Origin: an uncultured bacterium
GTDB taxonomy: Bacteria > CAZSTA01
Length of the DNA stretch: 11,043 nucleotides
Direction of reading: 5' to 3'
NCBI GenBank assembly: GCA_964609495.1
Contig: CAZSTA010000119.1
Location: 1 to 11,043 of the forward strand
Shown: positions 723 to 10,781 of the stretch, in pieces
How positions within the stretch are numbered: position 1 is the stretch's first letter
Layout: each line of letters starts with the position of its first letter
Position numbers and translations under genes: made by a program
The notes under the pieces: model-generated
Database searches by the model: none
The model's input: only the letters and a program-made list of their open reading frames with translations
Told to the model about the DNA's origin: nothing

Positions 723-751
723 TTGACAAATAATCCCAATTAGGCTATAAT
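723..751 (+). promoter_or_regulatory. Consensus sigma70-type promoter (-35 TTGACA 723-728, 17-bp spacer, -10 TATAAT 746-751), predicted TSS about 758
   Basis: Exact match to both hexamers at the optimal 17-bp spacing, with an A/T-rich UP-like tract upstream (640-720). It is correctly oriented and positioned about 70 nt upstream of the first gene of the plus-strand operon. Confidence 0.7.
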
Positions 752-823
752 CTACATAGGAGATTAACAATTTTAACCTAATAACGAAATGAGAGTATCT
801 AGCTCATTACCTCGGACAGGGAG

Positions 824-1612
824 GTGGTTCGAATTATCCTTTCTTACTCCAAGATAAACACTTACTCTAAATGCCCTTTCAAATTTAGATTATCATACAT
901 AGATAAGATACCCTCCTCTCCTAAACCTTATCACAAGTTGGGGAATATTCTCCATAGCGCTCTTAGAAGCTATTATGAGTATAGATTAAGCTCGATCGGT
1001 AATCAGTCCCCTAGCTTAGATTATATGCTAGAGGAGTATAGGGAGAGTTGGGGAGATATAAGAGAAGGGGATGAGAAGCATTACCAGAAAGGCTTGGATA
1101 TCCTTACCGAATATTACTACAAGAACGTTGATTCCGAAGCGGTCCCTTATTACATAGAACAACCTTTCAATATAGTCGTAGCAGGAGTGAATATCATAGG
1201 TAGCTTCGATAGAGTGGATAAGCTGGAAGGATATGAACAGTATGAGATCATAGATTATAAGAGTAGCAAGACTATGCTGACTCAGGAGGAGATAGATGAG
1301 GATATCCAACTCAGTATATATTACCTCGCCTTTCAAAGGATGACAGGAATATCTCCAGTTAAGCTAAACTTCTATTATCTTCGTCAGAATCAGGTACTCA
1401 GCACTTATAGAACTGATGACGAGATCAACGAGCTAGTGGAGGTGATTAGAGAGACGGTTTGGGGGATCTCCTATCGCCGTTTTGAACCCTGCGAGGGCGA
1501 GATGTGTCGTTACTGCGATTATAAGCAATATTGTCCCTTAAAGGCAGAGGACCCGCTCCCTGTAGAGGATACAGAAAGCAGGATTAAACAATTGGAATTT
1601 GGATATTATTAG
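824..1612 (+). CDS. PD-(D/E)XK nuclease superfamily protein, Cas4/AddB-nuclease-like, with a 4-Cys (putative 4Fe-4S) signature
   Basis: The N-terminus LSYSKINTYSKCPFKFRL fits the Cas4/DUF83 consensus (S.S.i..Y..CP.kf.L). Motif II is GSFDRVD, motif III is EIIDYKS, and the QhxxY motif is QLSIYYLA. The C-terminus carries C-x4-C-x2-C-x5-C (CEGEMCRYCDYKQYC), which with the N-terminal Cys gives the 1+3 Cys Fe-S arrangement of Cas4/AddB. The start is GTG at 824; an in-frame TAG lies at 800-802 and there is no in-frame ATG before residue 68. The SD spacing is poor. Confidence 0.72.
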   Translation: MVRIILSYSKINTYSKCPFKFRLSYIDKIPSSPKPYHKLGNILHSALRSYYEYRLSSIGNQSPSLDYMLEEYRESWGDIREGDEKHYQKGLDILTEYYYKNVDSEAVPYYIEQPFNIVVAGVNIIGSFDRVDKLEGYEQYEIIDYKSSKTMLTQEEIDEDIQLSIYYLAFQRMTGISPVKLNFYYLRQNQVLSTYRTDDEINELVEVIRETVWGISYRRFEPCEGEMCRYCDYKQYCPLKAEDPLPVEDTESRIKQLEFGYY

Positions 1613-1633
1613 ATCAAGAGAGATAAATTAGAG

Positions 1634-2107
1634 ATGTTACAGAAATATCATATAAAGTGTATTCTCTTGCTATCTTTATTCTCCATATTATTGACGACTT
1701 TAGGATGCCCTTCCCCTCAAATCAGAGCTGGTATTAGTTTCAGGTTAGTTGAGGCTAAGACCTGCCAAGATTTAAAGGACACTTTCCCCGCGACTCCTAT
1801 AGGAGAGACCGATACTTTTCTAACCACTGATGAGCAGGTAGTTATATGGCTAAAGTTTGAGAATATAGATAAGCCTCATATCCTAAGATGGAAGTGGTAT
1901 TCTCCTAATGGTGAGTTATACTATGATAGCGGCGATTTCATCACTAATGCCGAGGGAGGTTTTCATAAAATTAATTACTCCTGGATGCCAATTCTAATCG
2001 CTGGAGATAAAGCCTCTTCTTTGCCTGGCGAATGGAAAGTTCTAGTCTTCTTGGATGGGAATCTTAAAGTAACTAGAACCTTTAAGATCGTAGAGAATAA
2101 AATATAA
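1634..2107 (+). CDS. Predicted lipoprotein of unknown function
   Basis: N-terminal signal peptide with a lipobox-like LLTTLG-C (MLQKYHIKCILLLSLFSILLTTLGC). The ORF is 157 aa, in the same orientation and tightly spaced within the operon, with no recognisable catalytic motifs. Confidence 0.55.
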   Translation: MLQKYHIKCILLLSLFSILLTTLGCPSPQIRAGISFRLVEAKTCQDLKDTFPATPIGETDTFLTTDEQVVIWLKFENIDKPHILRWKWYSPNGELYYDSGDFITNAEGGFHKINYSWMPILIAGDKASSLPGEWKVLVFLDGNLKVTRTFKIVENKI

Positions 2108-2122
2108 TATCGAGGTTATTAG

Positions 2123-2632
2123 ATGAGTTCAATATTGTGGGCGCCTTGGCGTATCGATTATATCCTGAGCGATAAACATAATGGTTGTCTCTTCTGTGAT
2201 AAATCTAAGGAGGACAATGATGAGGATAATCTAATCCTGCTCAGGAAGGATACCTGTTTAGTTATGATGAATCGTTATCCTTATAATAACGGTCATCTCC
2301 TTGTCGCTCCTTATCATCATATACCCAGTATAGAGGGACTGACTGTAGAGGAAATGACGGAGTTAATGGTAACGATTAAGGAGTGTATAGAATTGCTAAG
2401 AAGGGTTATGAGCCCTGAGGGATTCAATATCGGAATGAATATCGGGAAGGTGGCCGGAGCAGGGATAGCTGGTCACTGCCATTTTCATATAGTTCCCAGA
2501 TGGAATGGTGATACCAACTTTATGCCGGTTTTAGCTGATGCAAGGGTTATGCCGGAGTATCTTAGAGCGACCTATAAGAAATTGAAAGAGGGGTTATCTT
2601 TTGGCACAGGTGAGAAGCGAACAGGAGGATAG
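2123..2632 (+). CDS. HIT-family protein (Ap4A phosphorylase / nucleotidyl-transferase branch)
   Basis: Histidine-triad motif HCHFHIVPR, and an upstream CLFC..(N)RYPYNNGHLLVAPYHH core typical of the Ap4A-phosphorylase-like HIT subgroup. A GAGGT SD lies 6 nt before the ATG at 2123. Confidence 0.8.
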   Translation: MSSILWAPWRIDYILSDKHNGCLFCDKSKEDNDEDNLILLRKDTCLVMMNRYPYNNGHLLVAPYHHIPSIEGLTVEEMTELMVTIKECIELLRRVMSPEGFNIGMNIGKVAGAGIAGHCHFHIVPRWNGDTNFMPVLADARVMPEYLRATYKKLKEGLSFGTGEKRTGG

Positions 2633-4766
2633 GATATTAAGAGAGCTTAATCCTACTCAAAGAGAAGCGGTAACTTTTGAGCAGGGACCACTATTGATCT
2701 TGGCCGGAGCTGGTAGCGGTAAAACGAGGGTATTAGTTCATCGTCTAGCTTACCTTATTAAATACAGGGGAATTTCCCCCTGGAATATATTAGCTGTTAC
2801 CTTCACCAATAAAGCCGCTGATGAGATGAAGCAGAGGGCGGAGAGATTGCTAGGATATAGCGTCCAAAATCTTTGGGTGAGGACCTTCCACTCCGCATGT
2901 GTGCGAATTCTACGCTATGAGGCGGAGAGGATCGGCTTTCCGCGAGACTTCGCTATCTACGATGCTTCCGACCAATTGACTTTGATTAGAGAATGCCTTA
3001 GAGAGCTAAATTATGATGAGAAGCGATTCTATCCGCGTGCTGTCCTCTCCTATATAAGCCAAGCTAAGAGCGAGTTATTTGGTGTTCAGGAGTTCACCGA
3101 GGCTAAATCGGATAATTTCTTCGAGGGAATCGTAGCTAAGGTTTATGCTCTCTATCAGGATAAATTATGGCAAAGTTCGGCGATGGATTTCGACGATCTG
3201 ATTATGATGACAGTTAAGCTCTGGCGAGATAATCCAGATGTTTTAGATTACTATCAGGAGAAGTTCAGATATATCTTGATAGATGAGTATCAGGATACCA
3301 ATCATGCTCAATATGTATTAGTGAAGCTTTTGGCGGAGAAATATAGGAATCTATGTGTAGTTGGCGATCCAGACCAGAGCATATATGCCTTTCGCGGGGC
3401 AGATATACGCAATATCCTCGATTTCGAGAAGGATTATCCCGAGGCGAAGGTGATCAGGCTCGAACAAAATTATCGTTCCACTAAAAATATCTTAGCGGCG
3501 GCTAGTGAAGTGGTTAAAAATAATATCAATAGGAAAGAGAAAACCTTGTGGACTGAAAATGAGGAGGGAGATCTCACCCTTTATGCTCAACTGAGCAATG
3601 GTATGGAGGAGGCTACTTTTATCTCCGAACAGATAGAGGATCTATATCTTAAAGGGGACAGGAGATATAACGACTTTGTGACCCTCTATCGAACGAATGC
3701 TCAATCCCGCACTTTCGAGGAGGTATTCTCCAGAAGAGGTCTTCCCTACCGAATAGTAGGTAGCCTTGGTTTCTACGAACGCAAGGAGATCAAGGATATA
3801 ATAGCTTATTTGAGGATAATCGCTAATACTTCCAATTCGGTGAGCTTAAAGAGGATAATTAATGTTCCCTCTCGTCATATTGGAGAAGTTACTATTCGGG
3901 GGTTGGAGGATTTCACTTCGAGACAGGGGAAGCCTTTATACGAGGCCCTTCGATATTTAGATGATATAGAAGAGATAAGACCTATGCAACGAAGAGCGTT
4001 GAAGAGATTTCGAGAGATGATCGAGGAATTTAGAAGATGCAAGGATACTCTTAATATAAATCAGTTGCTCTCTATGATCCTCGATAAGACTGGCTATATC
4101 TCTATGTTAGAGGAGGAGGGAACAGTTCAAGCTGAGACCAGAATCGAGAACTTGAAGGAGCTACTAACTGTTACTCAGGAGTTTGCCGCCGAATCGGAGG
4201 GAGATTTAGACTCATTCTTAGAAAGAGTCTCTTTAACCTCGAATGTGGAGAGGGTGCAGGGCGAAGAGTTAGAGGATGCTGTAACCTTGATGACTTTGCA
4301 CTGTGCTAAAGGGTTGGAGTTTCCAGTTGTTTTCATCACTGGTATGGAGGAGGGGTTATTCCCGCACTCTCGATCTTTGAGCAATGAGAACGAGTTGGAG
4401 GAAGAGAGAAGGTTGTGCTATGTGGGAATGACTAGGGCTAAGAAGAAGCTCTATCTTACCTCTGCCTTCCACCGCTTGAGCTTTGGAAACACGATATTCA
4501 ATGCCAAATCTCGCTTTCTCTCCGAGATCCCTGAGCATCTCCTGGGAGATCTGTTAGCTCAAGGTGAGGAAACTACAGAAGATGAGGAAGAATTTTCAGG
4601 GATAATATATAAGGCGGGGGATAAGGTTAGACATCCCTCCTGGGGGATAGGGACGATCGTCAGTCGATCTGGATATGGAGATAATGCGGAGGTCAAGGTT
4701 ATCTTCTCCCAGGGAAATTTAAAGAGATTATTGCTCAAATATGCTCCTTTAGAAAAAGTCGATTAG
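2601..4766 (+). CDS. pcrA: ATP-dependent DNA helicase PcrA/UvrD (superfamily 1A)
   Basis: N-terminal LNPTQREAV ... GPLLILAGAGSGKTRVL (motifs Q and I), DEYQDTN (motif II), and the full set of UvrD/PcrA motifs through LYVGMTRAKKKLYLT (motif VI). The C-terminal GDKVRHPSWGIGTIV Tudor-like tail is characteristic of PcrA/UvrD. The likely start is TTG 2601 (GAGGGG SD at 2588-2593); the alternative is GTG 2610. The start overlaps the HIT gene stop (2630-2632). Confidence 0.9.
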   Translation: MAQVRSEQEDRILRELNPTQREAVTFEQGPLLILAGAGSGKTRVLVHRLAYLIKYRGISPWNILAVTFTNKAADEMKQRAERLLGYSVQNLWVRTFHSACVRILRYEAERIGFPRDFAIYDASDQLTLIRECLRELNYDEKRFYPRAVLSYISQAKSELFGVQEFTEAKSDNFFEGIVAKVYALYQDKLWQSSAMDFDDLIMMTVKLWRDNPDVLDYYQEKFRYILIDEYQDTNHAQYVLVKLLAEKYRNLCVVGDPDQSIYAFRGADIRNILDFEKDYPEAKVIRLEQNYRSTKNILAAASEVVKNNINRKEKTLWTENEEGDLTLYAQLSNGMEEATFISEQIEDLYLKGDRRYNDFVTLYRTNAQSRTFEEVFSRRGLPYRIVGSLGFYERKEIKDIIAYLRIIANTSNSVSLKRIINVPSRHIGEVTIRGLEDFTSRQGKPLYEALRYLDDIEEIRPMQRRALKRFREMIEEFRRCKDTLNINQLLSMILDKTGYISMLEEEGTVQAETRIENLKELLTVTQEFAAESEGDLDSFLERVSLTSNVERVQGEELEDAVTLMTLHCAKGLEFPVVFITGMEEGLFPHSRSLSNENELEEERRLCYVGMTRAKKKLYLTSAFHRLSFGNTIFNAKSRFLSEIPEHLLGDLLAQGEETTEDEEEFSGIIYKAGDKVRHPSWGIGTIVSRSGYGDNAEVKVIFSQGNLKRLLLKYAPLEKVD

Positions 4767-4768
4767 CT

Positions 4769-7201
4769 ATGATCAATGATTTTGGAGGCAGTTCCTCCCT
4801 TGCTAGACGTTTCATAGGCGATATTTACAATATACTTGTTAATATCTCCGCTCCCGAGATAGAAGTTGCCTATCAGAGATGGAAGAGATCTAGTGAGAGG
4901 ATATATGGGAGTAAACTCGATGTTCTTCAAACCTTGAGTGAAGATTATATTCCCGATGAGAAGCCACTCGACTTCAGCTTTTTGCTCTTCGCTCTTCAAA
5001 CTTACTATGCGATCCTGCTCAAATTCATCGCGGTTGACATAGCCTCTCATATCTACAACGAGCCTTCTTTGAGTTATCATCATAATGATGATCACTCAAC
5101 TTGGACAGATGAGCTATTATCCCTGACCGATAGCGAATTGAGGGACGATCTGCTATCTCTGGAGGAAGAAGGTTTACTTAATCAGCTAGGCATAGTTCAA
5201 GATCCTGAAGAGCGACTATTCTCTTGGTATCTGAAGAATAATTACGGTAATGAGCTATGCGATAATTTGAGAGAGGTGATAGCAAAGCTCGGAGAGTATG
5301 AATTAGTCCCTTTAATAGATAATCCAAGGGATCTCTTAAAGGGATTATATCACGATCTTTTTCCTCGCTCTATCCGTCATAAGCTAGGAGAATATTATAC
5401 CCCCGATTGGCTAGCCGAATTAGCTCTGAACGAATTGGAGTATGATGGCGATCCTCATAAACGAATATTAGACCCAGCGGCGGGATCGGGGACGTTTGTA
5501 ATTGCCTCTATTCTGAGAGCGAAGGATTACGCCGAGAGAGAAGGGATAGCTCAAGAGGAAGCTCTAAATCTCATATTAGAAAATATAGTCTGTTTCGATC
5601 TCAATCCTCTAGCAGTATTGATGAGTCGAGTAAATTATCTTCTCGCTTTAGGGCGAGAATTATTTTTATTAGGGAGAAAAATTGAAATACCGGTTTATCT
5701 ATGTGATCCCATATTATCTTCTCACTTTAAGAGAGAAGCTAATTCCTTCGCCGAAGTTGACTCCGAGTCATTCGATTACATAGCAGGAAATCCTCCCTGG
5801 GTGAATTGGGAAGATCTCCCCGATGATTACAAGAGATCGACCAAAGAGATATGGGATAAATATGGTATATTCTCTCATAGCGGACTTAGGGCTAGATTAG
5901 GAGGCTCTAAAGATGATATAGCGATACTTATGACCTATGTAGCGATAGAGCGTTATTTGAAGAGGAAGGGAAAACTTGGCTTCGTAATAACTCGCTCCTT
6001 ATTTAAGACGAAAGGTGGAGGAGAAGGATTCAGAAAGTTCAAGATAACGGATAAAACCCCCATAAGAGTTATTAAGGTGGATGATTTGAGCGAGCTTAAA
6101 CCTTTCGAGGGGGCAAATAACAGGGTCGCTCTGTTTATATGTAGCAAGGGAGAAGCCACTCGATATCCCGTCCCCTATACTTTATGGAGGAGAAGAGATG
6201 GGATATCTATAGATCCTTCATATTCTCTCGAAGAAGTTATCGGACTAACGGATAGAGTGAAACTTGAAGCAAAACCGGTGGATGATTATACTTCACCTTG
6301 GATCACAACTAAGAGTAGTTTTTTTGATCTATTAGAGAGGATGGGAGGAAAGACCGAATATAGAGCTAGAGAAGGGGTAAATACTGGGGGAGCGAATGGG
6401 GTATATTGGATCGAGATCGTGGATGGAGATGATCGATTACTCGTAGAAAATCTCGATCATATAGGGAGGAAGAAGATCCAGAAGTATCGAGATAGGGTAG
6501 AGAAAGATCTTGTCTATCCCCTTCTCCGAGGAAGGAATATCTCTCGCTGGAGGTCGAGTTATTCCTGTTATATAATTATCCCTTGTGATCCTGACGAACC
6601 AAAATTAAGGTTCGCTTCCGCTGAGATGAGCCTGAGATTTCCCAGGACTTACTCGTATCTTTCCCACTTTAAAGATATATTGCTATCGAGAAAATCTAGC
6701 TCTATCCCGAAAAATCCCTTCTATTCTCTTTTCGGGCTTGGTCCCTATACTTTCTCTCCCTATAAGGTTGTTTGGAGGGCTTTATACAAGGAGATTGCAG
6801 CGGTAGTAGTATCAAAGAGGGAGGATCGATTTCTATCTGCCAGATATATTATCCCCGAGCATAATGTTATGTTCATCCCTCTTTGGAATGAGGATGAAGC
6901 CCATTATCTCTGTGCGATATTGAACTCATCCTTAGTTAATTTTGCTATGCGGAGTTATGCCCCTCTGTTCTATTCGACTCACCTCCTCTCCTATCTAAGG
7001 ATACCTAAATATGATCCTGAACTTCGTCTTCATCGAGAGTTATCCTCTCTTTCCTCGAAAGCTCACCTCAACTCCGAGGAAGACGATGAGTTAAGGCATA
7101 TACAAGAGGAATTAGATCTTGTGATATGTAAGCTGTGGAATGTGAAAAAGGGAGAGTTATCCGAAGTTAAGGAGTATCTAAAAGAAATGGTGATTAACTA
7201 G
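4769..7201 (+). CDS. Large (810 aa) gamma-class N6-adenine DNA methyltransferase, Eco57I/MmeI/PglX-like core, with an N-terminal ~200-aa domain of unknown function and a C-terminal putative target-recognition region
   Basis: LGEYYTPDWLAELAL (motif X-like), ILDPAAGSGTFVIA (motif I, SAM binding), and AGNPPWVNWEDL (motif IV NPPW), in the X-I-IV order of gamma-class amino-MTases. About 390 aa follow the catalytic core. The ATG at 4769 sits 2 nt after the pcrA stop, so translation is coupled and there is no separate SD. Confidence 0.8.
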   Translation: MINDFGGSSSLARRFIGDIYNILVNISAPEIEVAYQRWKRSSERIYGSKLDVLQTLSEDYIPDEKPLDFSFLLFALQTYYAILLKFIAVDIASHIYNEPSLSYHHNDDHSTWTDELLSLTDSELRDDLLSLEEEGLLNQLGIVQDPEERLFSWYLKNNYGNELCDNLREVIAKLGEYELVPLIDNPRDLLKGLYHDLFPRSIRHKLGEYYTPDWLAELALNELEYDGDPHKRILDPAAGSGTFVIASILRAKDYAEREGIAQEEALNLILENIVCFDLNPLAVLMSRVNYLLALGRELFLLGRKIEIPVYLCDPILSSHFKREANSFAEVDSESFDYIAGNPPWVNWEDLPDDYKRSTKEIWDKYGIFSHSGLRARLGGSKDDIAILMTYVAIERYLKRKGKLGFVITRSLFKTKGGGEGFRKFKITDKTPIRVIKVDDLSELKPFEGANNRVALFICSKGEATRYPVPYTLWRRRDGISIDPSYSLEEVIGLTDRVKLEAKPVDDYTSPWITTKSSFFDLLERMGGKTEYRAREGVNTGGANGVYWIEIVDGDDRLLVENLDHIGRKKIQKYRDRVEKDLVYPLLRGRNISRWRSSYSCYIIIPCDPDEPKLRFASAEMSLRFPRTYSYLSHFKDILLSRKSSSIPKNPFYSLFGLGPYTFSPYKVVWRALYKEIAAVVVSKREDRFLSARYIIPEHNVMFIPLWNEDEAHYLCAILNSSLVNFAMRSYAPLFYSTHLLSYLRIPKYDPELRLHRELSSLSSKAHLNSEEDDELRHIQEELDLVICKLWNVKKGELSEVKEYLKEMVIN

Positions 7202-7213
7202 TTCTATCTCAAT

Positions 7214-7255
7214 GTTCCCTCTCCCCTTGTGGGAGAGGGCTAGGGTGAGGGGGAA
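7214..7255 (+). repeat. G/C-rich palindromic REP-like repeat unit, copy C
   Basis: GTTCCCTCTCCCCTTGTGGGAGAGGGCTAGGGTGAGGGGGAA differs at only ~3 positions from copy B (555-596) and has the same orientation. Its GAGGGGGA end doubles as the SD for ruvX. Confidence 0.8.
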
Positions 7256-7262
7256 AGCTAAA

Positions 7263-7688
7263 ATGAGAATTATGGGATTAGATTTTGGAGAGAAGAGAAT
7301 AGGAGTGGCGATAAGCGACCCCTCGGGTCTTATTGCCCAAGGGATCGACGTCATCCAACGGAAAGCCCCCGAAAGGGATATTTCGAGATTAAGAGAGATC
7401 ATAGATGGCTATGGAGTGGAGAAGATAGTAATAGGGATGCCAAGGAATATGAACGGAACTTTAGGGAGAAAAGCGGAAGAGGTTCAGGAGTTTATGGAGC
7501 TATTAAAGGACGAATTCGATATTCCTCTAATGACGTGGGATGAGAGACTATCCACTCATCAAGCGGAAAGAGTATTGATCGAGGCTGATATGAGCAGAGC
7601 TAAGAGGAAGAAGGTTATTGATAGAATGGCCGCGGTAGTGATACTGCAAAGCTATTTGGATAGTAGATCAGCTCGAAGCGATCACTAG
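7263..7688 (+). CDS. ruvX: Holliday-junction resolvase-like putative pre-16S rRNA nuclease RuvX/YqgF
   Basis: MRIMGLDFGEKRIGVAISD... is the canonical RuvX/YqgF N-terminus (GLDxGxKRIGVAxSD) in a ~140-aa RNase-H-fold protein. The ATG at 7263 is 8 nt downstream of GAGGGGGA. The longer ORF from 7212 merely reads through the repeat. Confidence 0.88.
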   Translation: MRIMGLDFGEKRIGVAISDPSGLIAQGIDVIQRKAPERDISRLREIIDGYGVEKIVIGMPRNMNGTLGRKAEEVQEFMELLKDEFDIPLMTWDERLSTHQAERVLIEADMSRAKRKKVIDRMAAVVILQSYLDSRSARSDH

Positions 7689-7754: not shown

Positions 7755-8561
7755 TTATCCTCCTCCTGATAATGCTCCTTTAACTCTTTCTGCTACTATC
7801 CTCGCGATCTCATCCTCACTCACTTCTTGAGACTTCTCCCCCGCGGCAGAATCGCTTATCGCACAAACCTCCCCTCCACATAGTCCGCAGGTCTCACAAC
7901 TAAAATTCGGTCCCTCTATACCTAATTCCTCTCTGATCTCCATAAGCCTGTCCACTTGCTCCTTAGTGAGCGTCCTCACTCCTCCTAGCTGTTTGGCTAC
8001 CAAGCTTATATGAGCGAAATGTTCTAAAGTCTCCATTCGATAGTAGGCTTTATAAACATCGGTCCCGATCGTCATCGCTCCATGATTAGCTAGCAGAAAA
8101 GCATCGGATTTCTTAATATATTCCATAATGGTATCAGGTAGCTCCTCGGTAGAGGGAGTTCCATAAGGGGCTAAGGGGACCGAACCTATAGTTATGACTA
8201 CTTCTGGCAACACACATTGAGCTAGGGGAAGTCCAGCTACCGCGAAACCAGTAGCGATCGGGGGATGAGCATGCACTACCGACTTAATATCCGGTCTAGT
8301 CTTATATACTCGAATGTGAAGTTTTACCTCTGAGGACGGTCTTCGATCTTCTGCTCCCGCAATTTTATTACCATCCATATCAACTTTTACTATATCCCCG
8401 ACCTCCAAGTAGCCCTTGGACATTCCCGTGGGAGTAGTCAATATCTCATTCTCGCTTATCCTGATACTCACATTTCCATCATTAGAGGCCACATAACCCT
8501 TTCCGTATATCCTATGGCACACCTCTACAATATCTTCTTTCAAAACCCATTCATTCGCCAT
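7755..8561 (-). CDS. Class II aldolase/adducin-family protein (L-fuculose/rhamnulose-phosphate-aldolase-like) with a C-terminal Cys-cluster and an encapsulation-peptide-like helix
   Basis: GNVSIR, TPTG, PSSE (metal-ligand Glu), HAHP and ANHG motifs of the FucA/AraD class II aldolase fold occupy residues 1-215. A 53-aa extension follows, carrying C222-x2-C225-x2-C228-x4-C233 and the amphipathic helix DEIARIVAERVKGAL. A strong SD (AAGGAGAGG) precedes the ATG. Confidence 0.85.
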   Translation of the reverse strand: MANEWVLKEDIVEVCHRIYGKGYVASNDGNVSIRISENEILTTPTGMSKGYLEVGDIVKVDMDGNKIAGAEDRRPSSEVKLHIRVYKTRPDIKSVVHAHPPIATGFAVAGLPLAQCVLPEVVITIGSVPLAPYGTPSTEELPDTIMEYIKKSDAFLLANHGAMTIGTDVYKAYYRMETLEHFAHISLVAKQLGGVRTLTKEQVDRLMEIREELGIEGPNFSCETCGLCGGEVCAISDSAAGEKSQEVSEDEIARIVAERVKGALSGGG

Positions 8562-8636
8562 ATTACCTCTCCTTTTATTCTAGCTGGAAAGTTGAAATCG
8601 AAAAGAGAGAAATTCCGCTCCTTCACTTTCCACCCT

Positions 8637-8927
8637 CTATTTTCTAAATACGTATTCTCCGTCAACTTCCCAATAATCTATGATTCCCATAATCAAAGTC
8701 CGAATAGGAGCCCTTTCTAAACCGAAAACTTCCCTAGCAACTCCGGGACCGCTTCCAGCTAAAACTATATCTCCCTCACCTGCTCCCACATAGTCAACTG
8801 CCACCATCGGAGACCCTTTTGGATTTCCCTCTATATCGAGCGGTTGAACGATCATTATCTTCTTATTCTGATAAGCCTCATGTTTAAGGGTTGATACTAT
8901 ATTTCCCACTACTTTGCCGATGAACAA
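8637..8927 (-). CDS. BMC vertex (pentamer) protein, EutN/PduN/CcmL family (BMC-P), paralog 1
   Basis: MFIGKVVGNIVSTLKH...IMIVQPLDIEGNPKGSPMVAVDYVGAGEGDIVLAGSGPGVAR...MGIIDYWEVDGEYVFRK follows the EutN/CcmL consensus (ViGxvvaT, D.vGAG.G..VL...GS.AR, GIvD) and is ~96 aa. It apparently uses a TTG start. Confidence 0.85.
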   Translation of the reverse strand: MFIGKVVGNIVSTLKHEAYQNKKIMIVQPLDIEGNPKGSPMVAVDYVGAGEGDIVLAGSGPGVAREVFGLERAPIRTLIMGIIDYWEVDGEYVFRK

Positions 8928-8968
8928 AGGAGCTCACTTCCCTATTTATAAAAACTTCAAATCAGTAA

Positions 8969-9265
8969 TTACTGTTTCCCACTTTCAACTTCTGAATCGA
9001 TACTATGAACAGAATCTACTATACCAACTATCGCGGCATCTACTGGAGTGAAAACATCATCGAAAGCCTGAGTAGCATCACGACTAGTAACAAAGAACAC
9101 AGTATCACCGTATCCAGCTAGAGCTACCGCATCGGCAGCGATCAAAGGCCTGCCTGATTTTTCTAGGTTTTGATCCAGGGGCTGAACGATCAACAGGCGA
9201 AATCCCTTTAAGCTCTCCTGTTTTCTAGTTGCTACTATTGTCCCAATTACCTTTCCTAACTTCAT
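8969..9265 (-). CDS. BMC vertex (pentamer) protein, EutN/PduN/CcmL family (BMC-P), paralog 2
   Basis: MKLGKVIGTIVATRKQESLKGFRLLIVQPLD...AADAVALAGYGDTVFFVTSRDATQ...PVDAAIVGIVDSV has the same fold signature and is 98 aa. An SD (AGAGGA) precedes the ATG. Confidence 0.82.
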   Translation of the reverse strand: MKLGKVIGTIVATRKQESLKGFRLLIVQPLDQNLEKSGRPLIAADAVALAGYGDTVFFVTSRDATQAFDDVFTPVDAAIVGIVDSVHSIDSEVESGKQ

Positions 9266-9320
9266 ACCCTATCCTCTTTTAGAAAAAAGATAAACCATTT
9301 TCCAATTTATGCTTTCCCGA

Positions 9321-9875
9321 TCACAATACTTTCGCGATTAAGCTCGGATTTGGAGAAGGGATAACAACGCTATCTAAAATCATTCCCCTATCAGTGATCT
9401 CTGATACGCCAGCCTGGATTCCAGCTCTAACATCAGCTACAGTTCCAGTTAAAACTAGGAAGGATTTGCCACCTAAACCTTTCGCTAACCTGATCTCGAT
9501 CAGAGATACATTAGCCGCTTTTGCGGCTGCGTCACCGGCTATTATAGTTGAGGCTACCGAGAAGGTCTCTATTATCCCCAAAGCCTCGACCTCCTCGATG
9601 ATAGTCGTTCCCACGATCGCGGGGAAGATCTGAGGATGAACATTAGGGATTATCAGATCATCCACAACCGTTTCTGCTCCTACCCTCTGCCCTGTCCTAA
9701 CGGAGGTCTCTACTGCGGCTATCTCTCCCCCTATTAGAACAATGTATTTACCAGGACAGACCGGAGCCGCCTCTATCAGATCAACTGTAGCCGCATCCAG
9801 CATCTCATCACAAGCCATCATTCCCCTAGCTATGCTATTGAATTCTACAAGTCCAATCGCTGAATGTATTGCCAT
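9321..9875 (-). CDS. pduT: Tandem-BMC-domain shell protein, PduT-like (BMC-T with putative Fe-S-binding cysteine)
   Basis: At 184 aa it is the same length as PduT. It carries two BMC (pfam00936-like) repeats, AIGLVEFNSIARGM...VDLI and ALGIIETFSVASTIIAGDAAAKAANVSLIEI...GGKSF. The PduT pore cysteine context (ICPGK) is conserved as PVCPGK, and there is a C-terminal SVVIPSP as in PduT. Confidence 0.82.
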   Translation of the reverse strand: MAIHSAIGLVEFNSIARGMMACDEMLDAATVDLIEAAPVCPGKYIVLIGGEIAAVETSVRTGQRVGAETVVDDLIIPNVHPQIFPAIVGTTIIEEVEALGIIETFSVASTIIAGDAAAKAANVSLIEIRLAKGLGGKSFLVLTGTVADVRAGIQAGVSEITDRGMILDSVVIPSPNPSLIAKVL

Positions 9876-9917: not shown

Positions 9918-10781
9918 TTAGCCCTTTAGTCCGGTCAAAGTTATCCCTTTGATGAAATACTTCTGCATAGATACAAACAAAATTATAACTGGAAGAGAGC
10001 ATACTAGAGTAGCCGCCATAAGAAGATTAGTCTTAGTTATGCCGAATTGATTACTATAGAGAGCCAATCCTAGAGGTACTGTTCTTTTACTTAAAGTGTC
10101 AATCACCACTAGAGGCCACATAAAGCTATCCCAGTTCGCCATAAAGGTAAAGATAGATAGAGTAGCTAGAGGGGGCTTACAAAGTGGTAATATAATCCGC
10201 CAGTATATCCCAAATTCGGGGCAACCATCTATCCTTGCGGCATCGATTAAATCTGTAGGGATAGTCTGAATGAATTGCCTCATCAAAAATATGCCAAAGG
10301 CACTTATCAATCCGGGGATGATCAAAGCCGCGAGGTTATCTATTAGATTGAGATATTTCATCATAAAATAGAGGGGAATCATAGTAACTTGAAAGGGGAT
10401 CATCATTGTTGAGAGAATTAGAATAAATAGGATATCACGTCCTTTGAAATTAAATTTGGCGAAGGCATATCCAGTTAAGGAACTGAAGAAGAGAACGCTG
10501 AGGGTCACAGATGTGCCCTGGATTATGCTATTGAGAAAGAAACGGGCAAAGGGTGCATAAGATAACGCTTCAGGAAAGTTCTGTAAAGTAGGCTGGTTAG
10601 GTATCCAAGTAGGAGGATAGGCGATAGTCTCAGGGCCGGGTTTAAAGGCGGTCGATACCATCCACAGGAAAGGACCAGCCATAACTATCGTGAAGAGAGC
10701 AACGATTATATACAAAACAACTTGCCCTGTCCAATATAAAGTTCGAACCTTTCTAACGGATATATCGGATACATCATTCAT
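9918..10781 (-). CDS. Carbohydrate ABC transporter permease (MalG/UgpE-like)
   Basis: Polytopic membrane protein with the EAA-type loop ..DAARIDGCPEFGIYWRIILPL.. and the overall MalG/UgpE topology (287 aa). Confidence 0.85.
   Translation of the reverse strand: MNDVSDISVRKVRTLYWTGQVVLYIIVALFTIVMAGPFLWMVSTAFKPGPETIAYPPTWIPNQPTLQNFPEALSYAPFARFFLNSIIQGTSVTLSVLFFSSLTGYAFAKFNFKGRDILFILILSTMMIPFQVTMIPLYFMMKYLNLIDNLAALIIPGLISAFGIFLMRQFIQTIPTDLIDAARIDGCPEFGIYWRIILPLCKPPLATLSIFTFMANWDSFMWPLVVIDTLSKRTVPLGLALYSNQFGITKTNLLMAATLVCSLPVIILFVSMQKYFIKGITLTGLKG

Follow-up and report, generated by a model that had tools for sequence, protein, structure and literature searches.

Contig CAZSTA010000119.1 of an uncultured bacterium forms, in its entirety (11,043 bp), the stretch of DNA analysed here, referred to below as the window. 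It carries a compact run of genes encoding a Cas4-family nuclease, a lipoprotein-like protein, a HIT-family protein, the helicase PcrA and a large N6-adenine DNA methyltransferase. An earlier note on this sequence took as its parsimonious reading a housekeeping pcrA operon that had captured accessory genes, and raised the further possibility that the genes compose a dispersed restriction-modification (RM)-like or defence module. From profile searches, structural models and comparison with related loci, we consider it likely that the cluster groups functionally independent DNA-metabolism genes on the chromosome and is not a restriction or phage-defence system. Its members would be housekeeping HIT, PcrA and RuvX proteins, a solo Cas4 exonuclease of the mobile-element type, and an orphan methyltransferase devoid of a nuclease. 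This interpretation builds on direct observation of the identities of the genes, of the missing endonuclease domain and missing partners of the methyltransferase, and of the failure of these families to co-occur elsewhere; the parsimonious reading of the earlier note fits the same evidence.

Open reading frame (ORF) calling placed five genes on the + strand of the window, at 824-1612, 1634-2107, 2123-2632, 2601-4766 and 4769-7201, with successive gaps of 21, 15, -32 and +2 nt, in agreement with the arrangement first described. The perfect promoter that had been claimed upstream of them was also confirmed: a sigma-70-type TTGACA-17-TATAAT sequence at 723-751 (+ strand) matches the consensus at 12/12 positions. 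When one mismatch or fewer is allowed, the window holds two sites with this pattern against 0.10 expected, a number reached in 0/200 shuffles. The promoter lies inside a 450-nt gap, 3' of a terminator-like hairpin with a T-run (407-432, + strand; 9-bp stem with 5 GC pairs and a TTTTAATTTC tail; folding energy -15.2 kcal/mol, z = -3.4). This hairpin follows a fragment of alr that ends at 374, and it is the upstream boundary of the gene unit. The genes behind the promoter are probably co-transcribed as one unit, a prediction from sequence based on their short or negative gaps, the lack of any convincing predicted terminator within 824-7201, and a hairpin at 7217-7239 that has no T-tract. Since the 61 nt preceding ruvX hold this hairpin repeat and no T-tract terminator, the unit may number six genes, with ruvX probably the last. 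GC content, third-position GC content (GC3) and codon usage reveal no outlier among the genes of the window.

The first gene (824-1612, + strand) encodes a solo Cas4-family/PDDEXK_1 iron-sulphur (Fe-S) exonuclease of 262 amino acids (aa), matching PF12705 with E = 8e-37 and Cas_Cas4 with E = 2e-9. It displays the features that define the family, namely the D...(D/E)xK and QxxxY motifs with one N-terminal and three C-terminal cysteines, and an alignment of 18 nuclease sequences shows C17, H44, E112, D129, D144-Y-K146, Q162..Y166, C228, C231 and C237 to be invariant. Its score against the CRISPR-associated Cas4 model TIGR00372 (43.9 bits) falls under the cut-off of 65; no CRISPR array occurs in the window and no cas genes occur among the ORFs scanned. 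The protein also matches the PHROGs exonuclease family phrog_69 (E = 3e-29). The GTG start codon at 824 directly abuts a GGAGG at 819-823, so the exact start of the nuclease is uncertain; homologs align from residue 6 onward only, and translation may in fact begin a few nt further on, at a non-canonical codon.

The second gene (1634-2107, + strand) encodes a protein of 157 aa that had been called a lipoprotein. A signal peptide with ...LTTLGC is indeed present, and the product is best described as secreted or lipoprotein-like; no family match was found in Pfam, PADLOC, NCBIfam or PHROGs. The third (2123-2632, + strand) specifies a HIT-family nucleotide hydrolase/transferase of 169 aa (PF01230, E = 6.5e-15), assignable at the family level only, with 151 bits against a cut-off of 290 for the ATP adenylyltransferase model. 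It has a GAGGT ribosome-binding site, and its last 32 nt are shared with the beginning of pcrA.

The fourth gene (2601-4766, + strand) encodes a canonical superfamily 1 (SF1) PcrA helicase of 721 aa, initiated at a TTG codon with a good ribosome-binding site (AGAGGGG) 7-8 nt upstream. UvrD-helicase and UvrD_C domains are followed by the C-terminal Tudor domain PF21196 (PcrA_UvrD_tudor, residues 673-719), and the protein passes the curated cut-off of the PcrA equivalog TIGR01073 (933.8 versus 911.2 bits) with profile positions 2-725 of 725 aligned. These sequence features, which uphold the housekeeping hallmarks ascribed to it at the outset, identify it as a housekeeping helicase. In a search of 5.8 billion proteins its top relatives were PcrAs from many phyla at 50-58% identity, and nothing exceeded 58%. 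It shows 54-58% identity to PcrAs versus 29-35% to the helicase part of UvrD-Cas4 fusions. A genome scan returned 80 pcrA loci at 45-53% identity, none with any neighbour in common with the window, and the nearer contig L086 has the Firmicutes-type pcrA-ligA order. The strong PADLOC matches of the window PcrA to GajB (E = 1e-112) and RTasHel models are family-level cross-matches, GajB being itself a UvrD-family helicase; no protein matched GajA or reverse-transcriptase models in the PADLOC scan. Profile matches thus bear out the family assignments originally proposed for the Fe-S nuclease, the HIT protein, PcrA and the methyltransferase that follows it.

The methyltransferase and its relatives

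The fifth gene (4769-7201, + strand) encodes a nuclease-less gamma-class N6-adenine DNA methyltransferase of 810 aa with a specificity domain. It starts 2 nt past the pcrA stop codon and its ATG has no clear Shine-Dalgarno sequence, a combination that fits termination-reinitiation coupling at that stop. The protein matches Eco57I/N6_Mtase in Pfam, with a sub-threshold match to TaqI_C, and scores 733 bits against the PADLOC profile REase_MTase_IIG (PDLC03630). Its best stretch covers profile positions 596-1098 of 1100, and a full-length relative spans positions 5-1098. An exact look-up found the sequence not to be on record. The 119 relatives listed, the window protein excluded, are all 944-1129 aa in length (~1080 in round terms) and at most 46% identical to it, the identity to ~1080-aa relatives being 42-46% over the C-terminal 60%. 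It is a singleton and not the conserved orphan that the earlier note had considered, with at most 46% identity to anything known.

Two segments of the long relatives are missing. In pairwise alignments the first residue of the window protein pairs with residue ~173 of its relatives. The ~170-aa endonuclease domain at their N-terminus is not present in it; this domain matches in fold the nuclease domains of BpuSI and DrdV and in long forms has a conserved GRADxVY...EY[E/K]xP signature (predicted local distance difference test, pLDDT, of the model 88). A ~100-aa insertion that precedes the NPPW motif in long relatives is likewise absent. Having no endonuclease domain, the methyltransferase cannot restrict on its own. 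The catalytic motifs DPAAGSGTF and NPPW are retained in family-invariant columns, among ~100 family-invariant residues retained, and an AlphaFold2 (AF2) model (pLDDT 82) finds its best fold matches in M.BseCI and CamA, then PglX, MmeI, LlaBIII and DrdV. M.BseCI and CamA, which are also the best PDB profile matches, were aligned by Foldseek with E about 1e-22 and a template-modelling score (TM-score) on the target of about 0.6. Motifs and model together suggest that the enzyme is probably active.

Naturally short members of the family, about 760-825 aa, likewise have neither the N-terminal domain nor the insertion, and they share the starting boundary of the window methyltransferase. They comprise one group (S1) located among housekeeping genes and another (S2) with a conserved ~400-aa neighbour that has no family match and is possibly a separate restriction enzyme. 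The window protein is nearer to long forms than to S1 or S2 in every segment. In a neighbour-joining (NJ) tree it branches off basally to the long forms and S1 together, and the long forms are monophyletic in only 4/100 bootstraps. S1 is nested within the long forms, so the N-terminal domain was lost at least once within the family. A recent truncation of the window methyltransferase was considered and is weakened by this tree and by the natural short forms; its short form may be ancestral or may have arisen by loss of the domain.

The genomic surroundings of the family were surveyed in 84 loci, of which a metagenome scan supplied 80 and look-ups the other 4. A protein of ~379 aa (A) and a HerA-like ATPase of ~560 aa (B) adjoin the methyltransferase, on either side, in 28/84 loci, and a B12-binding radical-SAM gene also occurs in 14/84. 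Protein A has no match in Pfam, PADLOC or NCBIfam, and B has weak similarity to HerA/mad8. The N-terminal domain, the insertion, A, B, the radical-SAM protein and the S2 neighbour left no trace in the window; tblastn with the domain, with A and B and with the ~400-aa neighbour gave no match there, and for A and B there was nothing at E < 10 beyond noise. One long-form relative, of 1084 aa, is solitary in the cargo region of a Klebsiella IncP plasmid.

Cassettes that combine A, B and a long-form restriction endonuclease (REase)-methyltransferase of ~1090 aa are exemplified by loci L087:5148-14151 and L090:5131-13909, and they occur in 24/80 of the scan loci L091-L170 (L101, L109, L110, L134, L143 and L168 among them). 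Neither PMC12839542 nor PMC10853773, on HerA-linked methyltransferase systems, describes this arrangement. A cassette of this kind is present in Neomoorella glycerini. Possibly a restriction-like system not yet described, the cassette merits separate study although it lies outside the window. Many long-form N-terminal domains have the lysine of D...ExK replaced by glutamate (VIEYEPP) and others retain VIEYKxP; in some long forms the endonuclease domain may be rewired or lack activity. Some homologs of the methyltransferase, and some of the nuclease, carry the label Poribacteria.

Linkage across genomes and competing readings

Relatives of the nuclease are numerous, a HMMER scan retrieving 6709 representatives, and they are associated with mobile DNA. 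The closest (about 41-46% identity) are solo genes without a helicase nearby, some of which adjoin type I RM, NucS-like and Mrr-like genes and an HTH_17 gene; further relatives have as neighbours HicAB together with a primase-MCM gene, an integrase, or once more HTH_17. One that is more distant resides on a conjugative plasmid, close to ParB and IS21, and a variant of 385 aa stands alone amid housekeeping genes. Distant homologs were found as 154 stretches in viral contigs and in 512 phage records, and the phage records listed are annotated as Cas4 exonuclease or exonuclease. The nuclease is thus of a type carried by phages, plasmids and integrative elements; the notion of a universal housekeeping gene, which the earlier note had entertained as one outcome adverse to a defence role, is wrong in detail. 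As a separate observation, the close nuclease relatives P0259 (1297 aa) and P0260-P0263 show two to five distinct matching segments. Pfam was consulted for P0262 (554 aa, two PDDEXK_1 domains) and P0259 (five), and both consist of tandem PDDEXK_1/Cas4-like domains only, an unusual architecture.

The earlier note had set a neighbourhood comparison beforehand as its refutation test. This was carried out on 84 loci of the methyltransferase, 88 of the nuclease and 81 of pcrA, with tblastn and with profiles run against every ORF. A Cas4-like ORF was present in 0/84 methyltransferase loci; the methyltransferase family of the window or a UvrD/PcrA-like ORF in 0/88 nuclease loci; and, up to 10 kb from pcrA, a Cas4-like ORF, a HIT or RuvX gene or a relative of the methyltransferase in 0/81 loci. 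The sole exception was a distant UvrD-like ORF in one methyltransferase locus. The nuclease, methyltransferase and pcrA families are therefore essentially unlinked in the loci sampled. The usual endonuclease domain and partners of the methyltransferase family are absent from the window too, and the proposal of a dispersed module finds no support.

These results favour the interpretation of independent genes. On that interpretation the methyltransferase would methylate adenine in one motif of the host chromosome without a cognate restriction activity, its translation re-initiating at the pcrA stop, and by this proposal it would be made together with the helicase. The enzyme could serve an epigenetic role or guard the chromosome against related restriction systems. 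The nuclease would work separately in DNA-end processing or recombination, or might be the remnant of a mobile element. A nuclease, an SF1 helicase and a methyltransferase behind one promoter look like defence, and the locus is a caution in this respect, each part here belonging to a different known category. The methyltransferase coupled to pcrA is of interest as a candidate domesticated or epigenetic enzyme from a poorly sampled lineage.

Several observations weigh against this interpretation. Tight packing and translational coupling are typical of genes that function together, and HIT-pcrA and pcrA-ruvX links, too, are unique to the window contig among the loci compared. The contig is just 11 kb long, so partner genes may lie elsewhere in the genome. 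The collections searched hold no genome nearer than ~55% PcrA identity from which to read the ancestral gene order. The best nuclease homolog (45% identity; L252:839-2552, on a 4-kb phage-like contig) is followed after 250 nt by a small N6/N4 methyltransferase of PF01555, albeit one of a different family than that in the window. Among the top 150 nuclease relatives, many of the second tier (33-39% identity) are proteins of ~950-1050 aa in which the nuclease domain is C-terminal, and all of those checked (6/6) proved to be UvrD-helicase, UvrD_C and PDDEXK_1 fusions. The UvrD-Cas4 fusion family is, moreover, reported beside type III RM and Dcm/Vsr genes in section 8 of Hudaiberdiev et al. 2017 (PMC5704561).

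The fusions bear most directly on a different possibility, that the solo Cas4-like nuclease and PcrA form a split helicase-nuclease that, in the manner of UvrD-Cas4 fusions, AddAB and AdnAB, would serve DNA-end resection or recombination, with the methyltransferase an unrelated passenger. Besides the fused relatives, the joint placement of nuclease and pcrA in one predicted operon speaks for such a repair partnership, as do unfused uvrD and cas4-like operons of Clostridiales for which a repair role in a non-defence context is suggested (PMC5704561, section 8). Two unrelated genes nevertheless separate nuclease and pcrA in the window, the closest nuclease relatives are solo, none of the pcrA loci has a Cas4-like ORF within 10 kb, and the window PcrA is canonical, not a fusion-type helicase. 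By analogy the partnership is conceivable, and we regard it as unlikely.

A defence module in which methylation would mark self and the remaining components attack unmarked DNA is very improbable. The component list does fit, the genes are tightly linked behind one promoter, UvrD-Cas4 fusions are known beside methyltransferases (PMC5704561), and PADLOC labels the methyltransferase family type IIG. Against this stand the lack of co-occurrence over the 84, 88 and 81 loci, the identification of PcrA as a housekeeping ortholog, and a composition that reveals no island. The search of defence models that had been recommended yielded PADLOC matches at the family level only (Cas4, GajB/RTasHel, ThsC-like HIT, IIG) and no complete system, with no match for GajA, a reverse transcriptase or a ThsA/ThsB partner. 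Cas4-family enzymes, furthermore, are end-processing exonucleases and are not known to act as sequence-specific restriction enzymes. A variant that would combine both alternatives, in which a split UvrD-Cas4-type pair of PcrA and solo nuclease degrades unmethylated invading DNA and an IIG-like methyltransferase marks self DNA, amounting to a restriction-like system around a housekeeping helicase, appears to us highly implausible. Least credible is an assembly artefact, in which a chimeric pcrA/methyltransferase junction in a metagenome-assembled contig would make the 2-nt coupling non-biological: the window is one whole contig and the methyltransferase starts exactly at its relatives' domain boundary, directly past the pcrA stop, but neither GC content nor GC skew nor codon usage breaks at the junction, both ORFs are complete with proper start and stop codons, the natural short forms share that start boundary, and no repeat is present at the junction.

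Repeats and other features of the contig

The gap upstream of the promoter contains a cluster of GC-rich palindromic elements resembling repetitive extragenic palindromic (REP) sequences or miniature inverted-repeat transposable elements (MITEs) at 440-640, framed by 31-nt inverted arms (440-470 and 610-640); the region 480-600 is predicted to fold very stably (-70.1 kcal/mol, z = -5.4). Within this cluster lies one copy of a 42-nt palindromic repeat (554-595). A second copy in direct orientation, 93% identical, occupies 7213-7254 between the methyltransferase stop and the ruvX start, and folds as a 9-bp hairpin of CCCUCUCCC and GGGAGAGGG. The two copies enclose the promoter and all five genes, and the repeat is absent from 254/254 fetched loci. 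As ends of an island they were rejected as the principal explanation, the copies being REP-like hairpins, the enclosed pcrA a housekeeping gene and the composition uniform.

Downstream, on the same strand and 61 nt past the methyltransferase stop, ruvX (7263-7688, + strand) encodes a YqgF-type resolvase-like nuclease (TIGR00250, 150 bits versus 43). PF03652 matches from residue 18 of the 158-aa ORF, so the true start is probably 7263 or 7272. The listed start, an ATG at 7212 inside the palindromic repeat, would add 17 spurious residues (MFPLPLWERARVRGKAK).

Four ORFs on the - strand at 7755-9875 comprise an aldolase of class II extended at its C-terminus, two ORFs of EutN/CcmL type and a 184-aa ORF resembling a microcompartment shell protein; the aldolase alone among them has a Pfam result, and the EutN/CcmL-type ORFs, which were not scanned, are named from sequence alone. 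Taken with the homologs labelled Poribacteria, these ORFs hint that the lineage may be Poribacteria-like or PVC-like. A second near-consensus promoter, TGGACA-17-TATAAT (11/12), at 10705-10733 on the - strand falls inside the 5' end of an ABC-permease ORF (9918-10781), whose true start may lie downstream of the listed ATG. No tRNA genes or CRISPR arrays were found in the window. Rfam returned a single sub-threshold match, to n00280 (4375-4463, + strand; 44.5 bits versus 65.2), inside the pcrA coding sequence. The RNA so named is a C. difficile small RNA located within a helicase gene, and the match probably reflects conserved coding sequence.

Comparison with known systems

The methyltransferase shares with type IIG/IIL enzymes such as BpuSI, MmeI and DrdV their helical, gamma-class N6-adenine and TaqI-like specificity domains, but it lacks their N-terminal PD-(D/E)XK domain and the ~100-aa insertion. 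Measured against what distinguishes type II/IIG systems, sequence and model point to the expected methyltransferase motifs and specificity domain, whereas no cognate endonuclease, fused or adjacent, was found in the window and no linkage of nuclease and methyltransferase was found across genomes. The best structural matches, M.BseCI and C. difficile CamA, likewise have no nuclease domain. They are only 15-18% identical in sequence to the window protein, which has an additional N-terminal helical domain of ~200 aa, as is usual in IIG-like enzymes. A cognate restriction enzyme exists for M.BseCI; the window offers no candidate for one. Proteins A and B, which distinguish the long-form cassette, are not found beside the window methyltransferase; that cassette resembles in part DndH, in which a HerA domain is combined with a BpuSI-like triad (PMC12839542, PMC10853773).

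Similarity to Gabija extends to the match of PcrA with GajB models, all GajB-type matches in the window coming from this one protein. Its score exceeds the threshold of the PcrA equivalog and a Tudor domain is present, and the PADLOC scan found no match to the GajA OLD-family nuclease that accompanies GajB.

The resemblance to UvrD-Cas4 systems is closer: here too one predicted operon brings together a nuclease of pfam12705 and a helicase of the UvrD family, with a methyltransferase adjacent, and identity between the nuclease and the corresponding domains of the fusions is 33-39%. The helicase, at 29-35% identity to the fusions, is by contrast a canonical PcrA, its gene is not adjacent to that of the nuclease, and the methyltransferase is neither type III Mod nor Dcm; Pfam and PADLOC detected no Res, Mod, Dcm or Vsr domains among the window proteins scanned. 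The window accordingly lacks the features that define the defence-associated fusions.

The genes of the cluster are new members of known families, ordinary in kind. The nuclease corresponds most nearly to the solo-Cas4 or mobile genetic element (MGE)-Cas4 proteins of pfam12705 (Hudaiberdiev et al. 2017, PMC5704561), with which it shares the PDDEXK_1 motifs, the four-cysteine Fe-S signature and a setting outside CRISPR loci, and from whose sampled members it is set apart by its place in a chromosomal cluster with pcrA.

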